Below are positions 23,508-29,980 of a stretch of 64,000 bases of DNA, piece by piece; the stretch's first letter is position 1; every line of letters starts with the position of its first letter. Position numbers and translations under genes: made by a program. Below the pieces are notes generated by a model that saw nothing but the letters and a program-made list of their open reading frames with translations, was not told where the DNA came from and ran no database searches. Location of the stretch: NCBI GenBank assembly GCA_963797095.1, contig CAWCNY010000002.1, positions 544,001 to 608,000 of the forward strand, in the 5' to 3' direction. The DNA comes from an uncultured Chloroflexia bacterium. Lineage in GTDB: Bacteria; Chloroflexota; Chloroflexia; QHBQ01; JADMIH01.

Positions 23508-26294
23508 ATGGCTGACTTCACTACCGGTACAGTTACCTTCCTGTTCACCGACATAGAAGGGAGCACCCTCCTCTGGGAGCAACACCCTGAGGCAGCCAAT
23601 GCTGCCCTCGTGCGCCACGATGCCATCATAGAGAATCTTGTGGTCGAGCACCTGGGCATAGTAGTGCGCCCGCGTGGCGAAGGCGACAGCAGGTTCGCCG
23701 TTTTCCCCCGCGCCACCGACGCCGTCACCGCCGCCGCCTCCATCCAGAAAGCGCTCTACGCCGAACCGTGGCCCACGCCCCGCCCCCTCCGGGTGCGCAT
23801 GGCCCTCCATACCGGCGAGGCCGAGCTGCGCGACGGCGACTATTACGGTAGTGCCGTCAACCGCTGCGCCCGCCTTCGCTCCGCCGCTCATGGCGGGCAA
23901 ACCCTCATTTCTCAGGCCACCTTCAACCTGGTCAGCGATGCCCTCGCCCCAACCCTCAGTTTCCTCGACCTGGGCGAGCACCGCCTCAAAGACCTGGAAC
24001 GTCCTGAGCATATCTTCCAACTGGTGATCCCCGACCTCCCGGCTGATTTCCCTCCCCTCAACACACTCGACAGGCGACCTCACAACCTGCCCATACAGCG
24101 CACCCCCATAATCGGGCGCGAGAAAGAGGTCGAAGCCATCAGCGAGATACTCCTGCGCGACCGCACCGGGCTGCTCACCCTCACCGGCCCCGGTGGCACC
24201 GGCAAGACTCGCCTCGGCCTGCAAGTATCCGCCGAGCTTGCCGATCAATTCGACGCCGGGGCCTTCATGGTCGCCCTGGCCCCCATCGACGATCCTTCCC
24301 TTGTGGTTTCTACTATAGCCCGCACCCTGGAGATCCCTGACACGGGCGGACGCACTCAACTCGATGCCCTCAAAGATTACCTGCGCCCCAAACACTTCCT
24401 CCTCTTCCTCGACAACTTCGAGCAAGTCCTTCCCGCAGGCCCGGTCGTAACTGAGCTACTCGCTGCCGCCCCCCGTCTGAAAGTGCTGGTGACCAGCCGC
24501 GAGGCGTTGCACCTCTACGGAGAGTACGAATATCCGGTCTCCCCCCTTACTGTCCCCGACCTTGAAGATACCCATCTCCCACCTCAGCAGCTCAGCCAGT
24601 ACGAAGCGGTGCGTCTCTTCATCGAGCGCGCCAAAGCCATCAAGCCCGATTTCAGCATCAACGATGACAACGCACCTGCCGTGGCCGAGATTTGCTTCCG
24701 GCTCGATGGCCTCCCCCTCGCCATCGAGCTTGCTGCCGCCCGCATCCGCCTTCTCCCACCCCAGGCCATGCTCCCCCGCCTGCAAGGTAAATTGCAGGCG
24801 CGTCTGCAACTTCTCACAGGTGGGGCAAGAGACCTCCCCGCTCGCCAGCAGACCTTGCGTGGCGCTATCGAGTGGAGCTACGACCTCCTCACCGCCGACG
24901 AACAGAAGCTCTTCAACATGCTCTCCATCTTCATGGGTGGATGCACCCTCGAAGCAGCCGAGGCGGTCTGCGATGTCACCCACCTTGCGGTCGATCTTCT
25001 CAATGGGCTCGAGTCCCTCGTCTCCAAGAGCCTTGTGCGACAGTCGGAAACCAGCAGTGGCGAGCCTCGTTTCTGGATGCTCGAAACCATCCGCGAATAT
25101 GGCCTTGAGCAGCTTGCGGCGAGCGGTGAGCTAGATAACCTGCGCCGTAGGCATGCCGACTATTTTGTGGCGCTTGCCGAAGAGGGCGAGAAGGGCATTG
25201 TCGGCCCTCAGATCGTAGAGTGGTTGGATCGTCTTGAAGCCGAACACGACAACTTCCAATCCGTGCTCGAATGGGCAGTCGGACGCGAAGATGGCGATTG
25301 GGGGTTACGCCTGATCGGCTCTCTCTGGCACTTCTGGCAGGCCCACGGTTACATGAGAGAGGTGATCGGGTGGGTGGAAGAAAGCATCAACGCTGCCGGC
25401 ACACCCACCAACTCCCTTGTCTGGGTCAAGGTTTTGATGGCCCATCGTTTCATCAAGTGGAACCAGGGCGATATCTACGCTACCGATAATACCATGGAGC
25501 GTGCAGTAGCAATCGCACGCAGGATCGGGGCACGCGAGTATGAGGCCTGGGGACTCTCAGTGCTTCATACGCTACGCATACTCAGCAACGATCACATATC
25601 TGATCGTGCTGCTATACTCTCCACCTTACAAAAAGTGCTGGTGTTGGATCGCCAGCTTGGAAACACCTGGTATGGTGCCTTTTCCATAATGATCCTTGGG
25701 CTCGCTCACAATGGGCTTGGCGATTTCGATGAGGGGCGCGCCCTTTGCGAAGAGGCACTCATCCTGTACCGCAAACTCGGCGACCTGTGGGGTGTTTCTC
25801 AAGCTGTAAACATACTGGGCGACCTGGCCCGTATACGAGGCGATTACGCTGAGGCGCAGCGCCTCTACGAAGAGAGCCTGGCTCTCTACCGTAAATTGGG
25901 TAACAAAGCCGATGTGCCTGCCTCCCTTCATAACCTGGCCTATGTTGCCCTCCACCAAAATGACCTTGAACGCGCTACACTGTTGTTCAAGGAAAGCATA
26001 GACTTACAGCTTGATAGAGGCAACCGGCTCGGCGTGATCGAGTGTCTTTTTGGCTTCGCAGGTACCGCTCTGGCTGCGCAACAGATCGAGCGGGCAACCC
26101 GCCTTTTTGTAGCCGCGACCAGGTTGCAGGATGAGCAAAGGGCCCAGGTTTGGCCCGCCGAACGCGCCGAGCATGAGCGCAGCCTGGCTCAGTTGCATGC
26201 CCTCATGGACGATGCTGCCTGGCAGGCTGCCTGGGCAAAAGGCCAGTCATTGACCCTGGATCAGGCCGTCGATTACGCTCTACAGGAGAATTAG
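23508..26294 (+). CDS. Adenylate/guanylate cyclase domain + STAND ATPase + TPR protein
   Basis: FLFTDIEGST, GEGD, VNR.ARL, GPGGTGKT, LDNFEQ, LDGLPLAIELAA, C-terminal TPRs. Confidence 0.9.
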   Translation: MADFTTGTVTFLFTDIEGSTLLWEQHPEAANAALVRHDAIIENLVVEHLGIVVRPRGEGDSRFAVFPRATDAVTAAASIQKALYAEPWPTPRPLRVRMALHTGEAELRDGDYYGSAVNRCARLRSAAHGGQTLISQATFNLVSDALAPTLSFLDLGEHRLKDLERPEHIFQLVIPDLPADFPPLNTLDRRPHNLPIQRTPIIGREKEVEAISEILLRDRTGLLTLTGPGGTGKTRLGLQVSAELADQFDAGAFMVALAPIDDPSLVVSTIARTLEIPDTGGRTQLDALKDYLRPKHFLLFLDNFEQVLPAGPVVTELLAAAPRLKVLVTSREALHLYGEYEYPVSPLTVPDLEDTHLPPQQLSQYEAVRLFIERAKAIKPDFSINDDNAPAVAEICFRLDGLPLAIELAAARIRLLPPQAMLPRLQGKLQARLQLLTGGARDLPARQQTLRGAIEWSYDLLTADEQKLFNMLSIFMGGCTLEAAEAVCDVTHLAVDLLNGLESLVSKSLVRQSETSSGEPRFWMLETIREYGLEQLAASGELDNLRRRHADYFVALAEEGEKGIVGPQIVEWLDRLEAEHDNFQSVLEWAVGREDGDWGLRLIGSLWHFWQAHGYMREVIGWVEESINAAGTPTNSLVWVKVLMAHRFIKWNQGDIYATDNTMERAVAIARRIGAREYEAWGLSVLHTLRILSNDHISDRAAILSTLQKVLVLDRQLGNTWYGAFSIMILGLAHNGLGDFDEGRALCEEALILYRKLGDLWGVSQAVNILGDLARIRGDYAEAQRLYEESLALYRKLGNKADVPASLHNLAYVALHQNDLERATLLFKESIDLQLDRGNRLGVIECLFGFAGTALAAQQIERATRLFVAATRLQDEQRAQVWPAERAEHERSLAQLHALMDDAAWQAAWAKGQSLTLDQAVDYALQEN

Positions 26295-26456
26295 CGCGAC
26301 ATCGCAGCACACACAGGCAAGTTTGGCTAGCTATCCGTTATATCCGGAGTTTATGGTTTGTGGGTCATTAACCAAGAAACCCGAATCGCTCCTTCGCCGT
26401 ATATAGTCCCGAACTTGGCGAATCGACATGCTACAACTACTGAGAAAGGCTATTCT

Positions 26457-26855
26457 ATGAGCATATTCAACCCGGCAGAAATCGACTATCTGCAAAGCCT
26501 CCGTATAGGACGGGTCGCCACCGTCAGCCCCAACGGTGATCCTCATGTGGTGCCCCTCCGCTTCAAGTACAACCCGCAAGAGGATGCAATCGACCTGCTT
26601 GGTAGCGACCTCAGTAGTAGCAAGAAATACCGTGATGCCCAGGCCACGGGGCGCATCGCCTTCGTTGTAGATGATATCGCCGACGGCAAACCCCGCGGCA
26701 TCGAGATTCGCGGTAGGGCCGAAATCCACCCAACCGGCGGCGAGTCCCTGATGAAGAACGTTGGCACCGCTTTTATCCGCCTGATACCCACCCGCATCGC
26801 TGTGTGGGGCATAAACTCAAACTCCTACCACCCGGTCAGCCGCAAAGTTGGTTAG
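26457..26855 (+). CDS. PPOX-class F420-dependent oxidoreductase
   Basis: GRVATV...G.PHVVP, KKYR, AFVVDD, RGIEIRG.AE. Confidence 0.85.
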   Translation: MSIFNPAEIDYLQSLRIGRVATVSPNGDPHVVPLRFKYNPQEDAIDLLGSDLSSSKKYRDAQATGRIAFVVDDIADGKPRGIEIRGRAEIHPTGGESLMKNVGTAFIRLIPTRIAVWGINSNSYHPVSRKVG

Positions 26856-26887
26856 CAGTCTGTATAGAAGAAAGTAGATGGCAGCAA

Positions 26888-28222
26888 ATGGCTAAACCAT
26901 TCTCCGAAATCCCGCTTGTAGATGTCACACCATTTGATGAAGCCTTTTGGCGAGGCGACCTGTGCGCCACTATGGCCCAGGCCGCGCACGAATATGGCCC
27001 CGTATTCCGCTGGATCCCAACTTCACCCGAAGAGGCCGGGCAAATGCGCCTCTCTATGGTCGGCCCCGAAGCCAATCGCTTCGTTATGAACTCCCATCGC
27101 CAGCACTTCAGCCATGAGATCGGCTGGTCGCCCCTCATCAATGAAACCATGGGTCGTGGCCTCCTAACCATGGACGACCCCGAACACGCTATCCATCGCA
27201 AGATGTGGAATCCCGCCTTCGCCGCCTCATATATGGGCACCTACCTCCCAATTATGCAAAGAGTGGTTGAAGAGCGCACCGCTCGATGGCCCCAGTTAGG
27301 TGAGATCGACCTCTATTCCGAAGCGCGCGAGATCACATTCGATATCGCGGCGGCGGCCCTTGCGGGCTTTGATAGAGGTGAGCAGGTGGACAACCTTCGC
27401 ACCCTCTTCTATGGCCTCCTCCATGGCTTCGACGAGAGCGTACCGTTTGAGGAGTATGTGGCGGGCTTCTATGCATCCCGCGACAAACTATTCCACATAC
27501 TCACAGATATGATCGCAGAGCGCCGCGCCGCCGCGCCCGAAGAAAGGCCACGCGATGTCCTTAGCCTGATCGTCCACGCTCGCGATGACCAGGGGCAACC
27601 CCTCACCGATATGCAGGTGCTCGGCCACCTCAATATCCTCCTGGTAGCCGGCCACGAGACTACCACCACTCTCAGTACCTGGGCGCTCTACCTCCTCTCC
27701 ACTATGCCCGAACATCGCGACCGCATCCTGGCCGAGCTTTCGGCTTCAATGAATGGCAATGATGAGCCATCCATCGAAGCCATCAGGAGCCTCAAGCACC
27801 TGGACAACTTTGTGCGCGAGACAGGCAGGATGTACCCGCCTGTCATCAATGTCCCGCGTGGTGTCGTTGATGACGTCGAGTTCGCGGGCTATACCATCCC
27901 CAGGGGCACGGTTGTGCGCCTGAGTCTCGGCGCTTGCCACTATCTCCCTTCTGTCTGGACCGACCCACAGACTTTTGACCCCGACCGATTGGCCCCGCCC
28001 CGCGAGGAAGATAAAAGCACCCCTTATTCCCTCGTCACATTCGGTGGCGGTCCCCGAGTCTGCATAGGCCAGCATTTTGCCCTGATAGAAACGAAAGCTC
28101 TCGTCGCCCATGTCCTGCGCAACTACCTCCTTGAGCCTGTAACATCCACCAGGCCGGTGCTTGCCGGGTTTTTCAACTCGTTCATACCAGGCGGTGTGCC
28201 TATGCGTGTTCGTTCTCTCTGA
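26888..28222 (+). CDS. Cytochrome P450
   Basis: AGHETT, ETGR (ExxR), FDPDR, FGGGPRVCIG heme motif. Confidence 0.95.
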   Translation: MAKPFSEIPLVDVTPFDEAFWRGDLCATMAQAAHEYGPVFRWIPTSPEEAGQMRLSMVGPEANRFVMNSHRQHFSHEIGWSPLINETMGRGLLTMDDPEHAIHRKMWNPAFAASYMGTYLPIMQRVVEERTARWPQLGEIDLYSEAREITFDIAAAALAGFDRGEQVDNLRTLFYGLLHGFDESVPFEEYVAGFYASRDKLFHILTDMIAERRAAAPEERPRDVLSLIVHARDDQGQPLTDMQVLGHLNILLVAGHETTTTLSTWALYLLSTMPEHRDRILAELSASMNGNDEPSIEAIRSLKHLDNFVRETGRMYPPVINVPRGVVDDVEFAGYTIPRGTVVRLSLGACHYLPSVWTDPQTFDPDRLAPPREEDKSTPYSLVTFGGGPRVCIGQHFALIETKALVAHVLRNYLLEPVTSTRPVLAGFFNSFIPGGVPMRVRSL

Positions 28223-28266
28223 CCATTAATAGCCAGATCAGCGGTTGGATCACTGGAGGTGTAGCT

Positions 28267-28962
28267 TTGACCGGCATATCTGATGATACTACCCTGGATC
28301 GCCAGGTTCGGACTCACATTTACGACATACTCTTATCAGGTGGCAAGATGCCTTTGGCTGCCGATGTGGCCCGGCATCTCGCCATAGATTTAGACCGTCT
28401 GCACTCCTCTTTCCGGCGCTTGAAAGATGCCCACATCCTTGTGCTCCAGGAAGGCGATCAAGAAATACTGATGGCTAATCCCTTCTCGGCTGTGCCGACA
28501 CCCTTCCTGGTGGAATCCGGCTCTAGCTCGTGGTGGGGCAACTGCATCTGGGATTCTCTTGGTATCGCCGCTATGATCAAGCGGGATGCCCGCATCACCA
28601 CCGGCTGTGGCGATTGCAACGATTCTATGGCCCTTCTCGTTCAGGATGGCTCGTTGCGACTGGAGAATGGCGACGGCATAATACACTTCTCCGTCCCTGC
28701 CCGGCGTTGGTGGGACAATATCAAGTTCACCTGAAAAACAATGTTGCTCTTCAGGTCGGAAGAGCACATCGACCGGTGGTGCGCGGCCTGGGGTCAGCCT
28801 CGCGGCGGCACACTCAGCCTCGATCAGGTCTGGCAACTCGCCGTTGCCTGGTATGGTCAGGATCGCAGGGACGAGGATTGGCGTCGGAAGACCCTCGAAG
28901 AAGCTACAGCCGTCTTCGAAGACATCGGCATGACGGGACCGTTCTGGCAACTATCGGGCTAG
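28267..28962 (+). CDS. MerB-like (organomercurial lyase family) protein, probable selenoprotein (UGA at 28732-28734, residue 156; 231 aa)
   Basis: N-terminal HTH-like region, MANPFSAVPT, NCIWD, CGDC, then WWDNIKFT-TGA-KTMLLFRSEEH in frame; SECIS-like hairpin follows. Confidence 0.8.
28741..28769 (+). promoter_or_regulatory. Bacterial SECIS-like stem-loop
   Basis: ATG-T(bulge)-TGCTCTTC-AGGTCG-GAAGAGCA-CAT; loop starts 18 nt after the TGA. Confidence 0.75.
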
Positions 28963-28983: not shown

Positions 28984-29980
28984 ATGAGATATTTCATCAC
29001 AGGGGCCACCGGCTTCATTGGTGGCACTATCGCTCGGCAACTTATAGAGGCGGGCCACCAGGTAATAGCCCTCGTCCGTACCCCTTCCAAATCGACTGAG
29101 CTAGCCAAACTGGGAGCCGAACTCCACCCAGGCGACATCACGGACAAGGAAAGCATGCGCGCACCCATGAATGGTGCAGATGGTGTTTTCCATATTGCCG
29201 CCTGGTACAAGATCGGCCTGCGCGATAGCAGCATGGCCGAACACCTGAACGTGGACGGTACGCGCAACGTCCTTGAGTTGATGCGCGACCTGAATATACC
29301 CAAAGGCGTGTACACAAGCACCCTCGCGGTCTTCGGCGATACGCACGGCAAGATGGCGGATGAAGTCATATTATGACGGCGGCCCCTGGCTCAGCGAATA
29401 CGACCGTACAAAATGGATGGCGCATTACAAGGTGGCCTTGCCAATGATCAATGATGGCCTGCCCCTTGTCATTGTGCAGCCCGGTCTGGTCTATGGTCCG
29501 GGCGATACAAGCTCATTCCACGATATGTGGGTTCAATATCTGAAGCGTCGCCTCCCGGCTTCGCCCAAACGTGTAACTTACTGCCCGGCTTACGTGGAAG
29601 ATATAGCCCACGGCCATATCCTGGCGATGGAGCGCGGCAAGGTAGGCGAGAGCTATATCATAGCCGGGCCATGCCACACCCTGATCGATATATTGGCCCG
29701 CGCCCAGCGGATCACAGGAGTGCCCGCGCCGCGTCTTCATCCATCGCCCGGTTCCATGCGTACATTGGCGGGTGTTATGGGTGCGGTAGGTAAAATAGCT
29801 CCTTTACCACCCAATTTGAGCGCTGAGTATCTACGCATTAGTTCGGGTGTTACGTATCTTGGCTCTAATGAGAAAGCGCGGCGAGAACTGGGTTACAACC
29901 CGCGCTCGCTGGACGAAGGCCTTCCCGAAACCCTTGAATACGAGATGAGCCTCCTTGGCATGAAACCCCACCCAAAATGA
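28984..29980 (+). pseudogene. NAD-dependent epimerase/dehydratase (HpnA-like), frameshifted near 29365 (or sequence error)
   Basis: TGATGFIG, YTST in first ORF; YDRTK (YxxxK), PG.VYGPGD in second frame. Confidence 0.8.

Follow-up and report, generated by a model that had tools for sequence, protein, structure and literature searches.

Here we analyse a gene in a 64,000-nucleotide stretch of DNA from an uncultured Chloroflexia bacterium (the window, from whose first letter positions are counted). At 28267-28962 on the forward strand, two open reading frames (ORFs), 28267-28734 and 28741-28962, lie in the same frame with TGA-AAA-ACA alone between them. The initial annotation had taken them for a single frame broken only by these three codons and encoding a MerB-like selenoprotein of 231 residues, with the UGA ahead of MLLF. 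The ORF coordinates and the translation agree with it: when TGA is translated as selenocysteine (Sec, U), the read-through product has 231 residues (...NCIWD...WWDNIKFT-U-KTMLLFRSEEH...) and ends at the TAG at 28960-28962. From sequence comparison, we expect 28267-28962 to be one intact gene for a MerB-fold selenoenzyme whose UGA is decoded as Sec, a reading to which we give a probability of about 85%. Homologues begin at the position equivalent to the TTG start (MTGxSD...). The gene and its parts are listed here, together with a hairpin resembling a selenocysteine insertion sequence (SECIS); the codon of His140, a conserved residue discussed below, is 28684-28686.

28253..28257, forward strand: Shine-Dalgarno-like GGAGG, 9 nt 5' of the TTG start, read from the sequence
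28267..28962, forward strand: predicted MerB-like selenoprotein gene, complete; 231 codons, TTG start, UGA-Sec codon 156, TAG stop at 28960-28962
28543..28554, forward strand: codons of Cys93-Ile-Trp-Asp96, equivalents of MerB Cys96 and Asp99
28606..28617, forward strand: codons of Cys114-x-x-Cys117 (CxxC), at a beta-hairpin turn between model strands 108-113 and 120-126
28732..28734, forward strand: in-frame UGA, predicted Sec156, in the column of MerB Cys159; TGA or TGC in 110 homologous loci
28741..28769, forward strand: SECIS-like hairpin inside the coding sequence, codons Met159-His167 (MLLFRSEEH); minimum-energy fold

Codon 156 among homologues

We compared codon 156 in 110 homologous loci. 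Thirty were taken from 401 genomes sampled evenly from the window's phylum, 36 of which matched, and 80 are the best of at least 566 relatives in named genomes. Nine match rows of the phylum sample, which include partial matches and second copies, were left out (three with one TGA, two with two TGAs and four without TGA). Since L015 and L088 have almost the same sequence, no more than 109 distinct genomes stand behind the 110 loci; one of the TGA loci of the phylum sample, L034, comes from an unpublished genome (G272). The column of residue 156 holds TGA in 102 loci, TGC (Cys) in eight, and nothing else. The Cys/UGA pairing that the initial annotation had predicted is thus found, with neither Trp nor Arg in any of these loci. 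TGA occurs in 22 of the 30 phylum-sample loci, TGC being present in the other eight, and in 80 of the 80 named-genome loci. As the latter were chosen by their similarity to a query of mostly Sec forms, 22/30 is the less biased estimate of the Sec fraction.

The record titles of the 80 named-genome loci are of Actinomycetota type in 24 cases, Acidobacteriota type in 20 and Chloroflexota type in 18, followed by Gemmatimonadota (5), Eremiobacterota/Vulcanimicrobiota (3), Proteobacteria (3), Armatimonadota, KSB1 and Dormibacterota (1 each) and unclassified (4). All 80 are metagenome-assembled genomes, mostly from soil and groundwater, and single labels may be wrong. A quick tree needs four switches between Sec and Cys, and well-supported branches leave no way round at least three of them. 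In this tree, Cys forms lie within groups of Sec forms and phylum labels are intermixed; L020 (Sec) and L021 (Cys) belong to the same genus. Two copies with one in-frame TGA each were seen in G297 (C482:66-737 and C63:5840-6478), and G307:C176:248-946 and G356:C23:18281-18742 are more distant MerB-like matches (27-28% identity) with two in-frame TGAs.

In a protein collection, the search gave 1650 matches. Among the best 120 of these, 111 end exactly at query residue 155, four end before it and five are full length, just as would follow if gene callers split the gene, which the initial annotation had anticipated. Some of the database proteins cut at residue 155 carry the name 'organomercurial lyase'. 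Four of the full-length proteins (P0043, P0068, P0084 and P0117) are uninterrupted, with Cys at column 156; the fifth is discussed below.

A TGA inside a frame could also come from a nonsense mutation or a miscalled base, leaving a dead product of 155 residues or a pseudogene. As the neighbouring epimerase gene carries a frameshift, disrupted genes do occur in this assembly or lineage. Contigs from three soil-metagenome runs of one study, matching in small shares, cover 28332-28482, 28764-28914 and short conserved bits, and do not span 28732-28734. However, 101 other loci, under about ten phylum labels, have TGA in this very column, and the frame downstream of the TGA is under purifying selection. 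In pairwise comparison of the 22 Sec forms of the phylum sample, the three codon positions differ by 0.44/0.40/0.60 downstream of the hairpin vs 0.40/0.36/0.60 upstream. Both sides of the UGA thus carry the same protein-coding signature, which indicates that translation continues past it. Downstream residues are kept as well (Phe162 in 110/110 loci, Trp171 in 102/110, Trp195 in 103/110), and a product of 155 residues would be without the ligand equivalent to Cys159. Column conservation and the downstream coding signal effectively refute a broken gene, which we regard as extremely improbable. A soil-metagenome contig that matches only the hairpin region reads ...ACC TGA AGC GGG ATG... ahead of the position of window 28747, and thus represents another relative with TGA at the same place.

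Equally remote in our estimation is a division into two genes, or re-initiation at the ATG at 28741 (155 aa + 73 aa). This ATG does lie 6 nt past the TGA. However, its codon, Met159, reads ATA, ATC or ATT (Ile) in 10 of the 110 loci, so Met159 cannot be a general start; the Cys forms are single ORFs, and a single Pfam domain, like a single fold, extends over the two parts.

The hairpin and the selenocysteine machinery

Behind the UGA, the initial annotation had described a hairpin with its loop 18 nt past the UGA and G in loop position 2, and the minimum-energy fold reproduces it. Positions 28741-28744 and 28746-28752 pair with 28759-28769, U28745 is bulged and the loop AGGUCG occupies 28753-28758. 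This loop, with G at its positions 2 and 3, begins 18 nt past the UGA. The SECIS loop of E. coli fdhF contains AGGUC, and a loop distance of 18-19 nt with G at the loop start reportedly fits the rules for bacterial SECIS elements from the bSECISearch work.

In the Sec forms, the nine codons after position +3 are much more conserved than the rest of the gene, third positions included (differences 0.13/0.09/0.31). The stretch CTC-TTC-CGG-TCG-GAA is near-invariant in nucleotides, with TTC in 22/22 and TCG in 21/22 Sec forms. The motif CTTCNGGTCGGARG, which corresponds to a CUUCC-GGUC-GGAAG hairpin, was found in 87 of 102 TGA forms (21/22 in the phylum sample and 66/80 in the named genomes) and in 0/8 Cys forms; the Cys forms drift in protein at this site too (e.g. 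RSD, QTE, ASP). In a pairing analysis of the 102 TGA sequences, equal to 101 distinct rows, 88.1% of cells are paired vs 37-57.5% in slid registers. Cells changed on both sides of a pair number 21 vs 9.1 +/- 2.4 in shuffles (0/500 shuffles reach 21). The loop is closed by a C-G pair in 89 rows, by U-A in six and by A-U in two; in the other four rows the closing bases are unpaired. The six U-A rows, in which Arg163 has become Trp with the pair kept, count as one event because they form a single clade in the tree. The two A-U rows, L043 and L082, stand apart in the tree; L043 is the best-matching locus among the named-genome matches listed (62% identity). These comparisons support the view that a conserved GGUC-loop hairpin, located 18-19 nt past the UGA and specific to TGA forms, is a SECIS-like element.

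The hairpin could instead be a terminator for antisense transcription, as a terminator scan flags it on the minus strand with a T-rich tail. This too we regard as hardly credible: the A-rich stretch behind the antisense T-run is not conserved in relatives, and the hairpin is found in none of the eight Cys forms.

The initial annotation had tied its reading to a host with selA, selB, selC and selD. In the host genome (6.0 Mb in 8 contigs, 93% complete), selA (567 bits), selB (323 bits plus a C-terminal part), selD (325 bits, with its own in-frame TGA) and one tRNA-SeC with anticodon tca are all present. The selD gene (L010, G000:C2:243079-243930) has its TGA at C2:243109 (...AQCAG-U-AGKMGPGDL...), and a hairpin GGUC-CUGGU-GACC begins 12 nt past it. 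A genome-wide scan for UGA plus a GGUC-loop hairpin plus an open frame, which had no internal control beyond selD, gave 12 matches, and the six that were translated are low-complexity and wrong-frame. In the phylum sample, 21 of the 22 genomes with a TGA form have selA vs one of the eight with a Cys form, the background being 308 of 401 genomes (five unpublished ones included). A single family (f17; selA in 0/16) accounts for five of the eight Cys forms, so the absences of selA among Cys forms are not independent.

Several observations weigh against the hairpin or against Sec decoding. The window hairpin folds at -14.8 kcal/mol (z = -1.04), a value that 31 of 200 shuffles equal or better. Because the window fold is no better than shuffles, the significance of the hairpin derives only from the comparison of homologues. 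In the window copy, as in L113, the closing position is an unpaired A.G and the loop has 6 nt. The lower stem is weak, pair 18-37 being unpaired in 65/101 rows and pair 19-36 in 29/101. Covariation was nil among 22 sequences, from which RNAalifold retained only the invariant 5-bp stem. The compensatory signal given above for the 102 sequences stems from few events, in a kind of test that relatedness can inflate. The Rfam search found no matching family, only three sub-threshold matches at chance level. The fifth full-length protein, P0023 (216 aa), has Trp at column 156 with the hairpin-encoded peptide kept (...VFS-W-NTMLLFRSEEH...); known as a protein only, it is the sole homologue seen with Trp in the Sec/Cys column. 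One genome with a TGA form, G328 (93% complete, 160 contigs), has neither selA nor selB above cut-off. Finally, no RNA run was matched to the organism in a sequencing-run look-up.

P0023 and G328 would fit a UGA156 that is read through without Sec, as Trp, Cys or Gly, by near-cognate decoding or other recoding, with the hairpin only stimulating the process. However, the Trp of P0023 may stem from a gene caller translating TGA with code 4 on a short contig. As the selD of G328 carries an in-frame TGA, G328 must decode Sec, and its selA and selB are probably missing because they are unassembled. Moreover, the sole sense codon found in DNA at this column is Cys (8/8), the column is that of a metal-ligand Cys in MerB, and TGA forms track selA in the phylum sample. 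TGA is also the ordinary stop of the neighbouring P450 gene and of many homologues, which indicates the standard code. We therefore consider read-through without Sec very improbable, and think that UGA156 almost certainly encodes selenocysteine at a MerB-type catalytic site.

Active site, neighbourhood and possible chemistry

The predicted protein matches the Pfam MerB domain (PF03243) with 111 bits vs a gathering score of 27. Residues 73-197 correspond to profile positions 1-126 of 126, so the match is complete over them and runs across the TGA. An AlphaFold2 model of the 231-residue product, obtained with a 12-row alignment, reached a predicted local distance difference test score (pLDDT) of 86 and a predicted TM-score (pTM) of 0.82. 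When it was compared with the PDB by Foldseek, 11 of the 11 matches with E <= 0.001 were MerB or MerB2, the top one being 5c17 (TM-scores 0.65 and 0.72).

The active-site residues of MerB are given as Cys96, Asp99 and Cys159 (Haft & Gwadz, bioRxiv 10.1101/2022.07.06.499078). The family profile places 'CiwD' on MerB 'C96-A-L-D99', so that the NCIWD proposed by the initial annotation as the Cys96/Asp99 site is present as Cys93/Asp96. The TGA column falls on the first Cys of MerB 'FCCHVHFF', which is Cys159, because the entry for the C160S mutant reads FCSHVHFF; a single-sequence alignment to MerB2 gives the identical column. The catalytic set would thus be a variant triad, with the Cys and Asp equivalents kept and Sec at the Cys159 position. 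Cys93 is present in 110/110 loci, Asp96 in 109/110, and Sec or Cys at residue 156 in 110/110. As part of the reading favoured here, we take Cys93/Asp96/Sec156 to be a probable Cys/Asp/Sec version of the MerB active site. Cys114 (105/110), Cys117 (99/110) and His140 (103/110) are also conserved. Cys117 has no counterpart in canonical MerB in the profile alignment, and Cys114-x-x-Cys117 together with His140 may form a second metal or redox site.

We hypothesize that the SelA/SelB/SelD/tRNA-Sec system would decode UGA156 as selenocysteine under the direction of the hairpin within the next nine codons (MLLFRSEEH). Sec156, at the position of MerB Cys159, would then make the active site together with Cys93 and Asp96. 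By analogy with MerB, thiolate and selenolate would coordinate the metal(loid) of the organometallic compound acted on, while Asp96 would donate a proton to the departing carbon, so that the carbon-metal bond is cleaved with no mer operon involved. With selenolate, a scarce substrate might be captured more tightly or more quickly. Such protonolysis at a carbon-metal(loid) bond, in which selenolate takes the place of the Cys159 thiolate, is a tentative proposal that we place a little short of even odds.

The neighbourhood of the gene was examined for hints about the substrate. Three co-oriented features flank it, assigned by Pfam:

26358-26855, forward strand: PNPOx-like ORF, upstream; local context only
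26804-28222, forward strand: cytochrome P450, upstream; local context only
28984-29980, forward strand: NAD-dependent epimerase/dehydratase, downstream, in overlapping ORFs 28984-29376 and 29360-29980

A co-oriented run with a PPOX-type (PNPOx-like) enzyme, a P450 and an epimerase had been described in the initial annotation, and Pfam bears out these assignments. Its suggestion that they hint at the substrate fails, as no homologue of these genes lies beside any of the 80 other loci. The PNPOx-like and P450 ORFs overlap by 52 nt (26804-26855), and the true start of the P450 is probably further downstream than GTG 26804. The epimerase halves are in different frames, with the N-terminal Pfam part in the first ORF and the C-terminal part in the second; the gene may be a pseudogene with a frameshift or, alternatively, the assembly may contain an indel error here. 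Directly upstream of the run, at 23508-26294 on the forward strand, lies the gene of a 928-aa protein of STAND-type architecture (adenylate/guanylate cyclase, NB-ARC/AAA ATPase and TPR).

The gene had also been placed outside any mer operon, rightly so: Pfam scans of the ORFs between 17.9 and 36.3 kb of the window showed no mer, metal or selenium genes, and no MerA scores above cut-off in the host genome, 93% complete as it is (best 355 vs 454 bits). With the Sec/Cys column and the selenocysteine machinery, the absence of MerA supports the core proposal of the initial annotation, a mer-independent MerB-like selenoprotein of about 231 aa with Sec at the Cys159 equivalent.

Three points count against the lyase chemistry. 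When the ORFs within +/-7 kb of 81 loci were clustered, no neighbour family occurred in more than nine loci, and no conserved neighbourhood was seen. The recurrent neighbours (ribosomal protein S4, ABC ATPase, ADH, flavin oxidoreductase, LarA-N, DHDPS and M16 peptidase) reflect synteny within a single lineage, mainly an Actinomycetota group. MerA is present in three of the 22 TGA-form genomes (G083, G243 and G373) vs 60 of the 401 in the background, and it never adjoins a TGA-form locus, the nearest being 24 kb away in G083. As the association with MerA is at background level, an organomercurial substrate is in doubt. Lastly, an Hg-Se bond might hinder product release. At G369:C57:4185-6322 and G395:C103:23516-25355, a weakly SaoL-like MerB-domain match lies directly beside a MerA above cut-off; these pairs look like canonical mer-type pairs, unlike the clade studied here.

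A selenoprotein that is not a lyase would keep Sec decoding and compete only with the chemistry proposed above. Cys93/Sec156, possibly with Cys114-x-x-Cys117, would be a redox centre, or the protein a binder or chaperone of a soft metal(loid). The CxxC and His140, which canonical MerB does not need, would fit such a function, as would the lack of a MerA partner and of a conserved neighbourhood. Bacterial selenoproteins are mostly described as redox proteins in the review PMC9312934, and, as far as the account of Haft & Gwadz goes, the MerB site binds other metals. However, Asp96, the proton donor in MerB, is retained throughout the family but for one locus, with no obvious need for it in a pure redox or binding role, and the full MerB core fold appears to be retained in the model. 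We thus consider a non-lyase function rather unlikely, though a serious alternative to MerB-type protonolysis.

Going further, the family might serve aerobic soil bacteria of many phyla as a widespread organometal lyase that depends on selenium but not on mer genes, and that performs mer-independent methylmercury demethylation or cleaves other natural organometal(loids), the selenolate capturing trace substrate. We offer this combined proposal as a doubtful speculation. To our knowledge, mer-independent methylmercury demethylation has long been observed without an enzyme assigned to it.

The relatives counted above would put the gene in at least several hundred species genomes. As public protein sets truncate it at residue 155, databases lack the catalytic C-terminal third, and selenoproteomes do not count the family. 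Such a family suggests organometal(loid) or soft-metal chemistry among ordinary soil bacteria. Sec and Cys forms that occur naturally in one genus, such as L020/L021, could show what selenium contributes.

Comparison with SaoL, MerB and MerB2

A relative of MerB with Sec has been proposed in print before. The initial annotation was correct in recalling that MerB-like selenoproteins had been reported: SaoL is a MerB-like 'selenocysteine-assisted organometallic lyase' (NCBIfam NF040728; Haft & Gwadz). As far as main texts go, SaoL is the sole MerB-type selenoprotein that we found in the literature. Tables in the reviews PMC9312934 and PMC13188914 give one MerB-like entry, for which PMC9312934 cites GOS 2008 and Peng 2016. 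The main texts of GOS 2008 (PMC2398784), Peng 2016 (PMC5029168) and BSepDB 2026 (PMC13326102) contain neither 'MerB' nor 'alkylmercury', though their supplementary tables may differ; the window clade may already figure in supplementary family tables of selenoproteome papers.

According to its published description, SaoL resembles the window family in having the Pfam MerB domain, Sec at the MerB Cys159 position and the equivalents of Cys96 and Asp99. Its database entries are likewise truncated at the UGA, and its substrate is likewise uncertain. However, the window protein scores 36.4 bits vs the cut-off of 140 for NF040728, members of its clade score 27-66 bits, and none of the 401 phylum genomes exceeds that cut-off. 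SaoL has a Cys-Sec dipeptide, whereas residue 155 in the window family is Thr in 81, Asn in 27 and Ala in two of the 110 loci, never Cys. SaoL lies in the nine-gene SAO neighbourhood, whereas ORF clustering found no conserved neighbourhood here (individual Sao profiles were not searched). As described, SaoL is known from anaerobes only (Firmicutes, spirochaetes and deltaproteobacteria); the window clade carries Chloroflexota, Acidobacteriota, Actinomycetota, Gemmatimonadota and other labels, and in the window its member stands beside a P450. Identity as SaoL is ruled out by the score of 36.4 vs 140 bits, by T-U in place of C-U and by the lack of a SAO neighbourhood.

Canonical MerB (EC 4.99.1.2; plasmid R831b; PDB 1s6l, 3f0o, 3f0p, 3f2f and 3fn8) has the same fold, the Cys96 and Asp99 to which Cys93 and Asp96 correspond, and a third ligand at the Cys159 position. 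That ligand is Cys in MerB and would be Sec here, and identity in the structural alignment is 15-17%. Unlike MerB, the window protein has the extra CxxC, has no equivalent of Cys160 (residue 157 is Lys) and is not part of a mer operon. With the NCBIfam MerB models PRK13239 and NF033555 it scores 26.2 vs 193 and 17 vs 200 bits, and it passes no model of NCBIfam release 20.0. These sub-cut-off scores, together with the absence of a MerA or mer context, rule out identity as canonical MerB.

The closest solved relative is MerB2 of Bacillus megaterium (5c17), with E values of 2e-8 for the single sequence and 1e-15 for the profile. Its 'T-C-K' around the second catalytic Cys parallels the 'T-U-K' of the window protein. 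It differs in having Cys at the Sec156 column and Ser aligned to Asp96, at 20% identity.

In summary, the comparison confirms the window gene as a well-supported candidate for a MerB-like selenoprotein distinct from SaoL. It would represent a second MerB-type selenoenzyme, of far wider distribution than SaoL and without mer operon or SAO locus.

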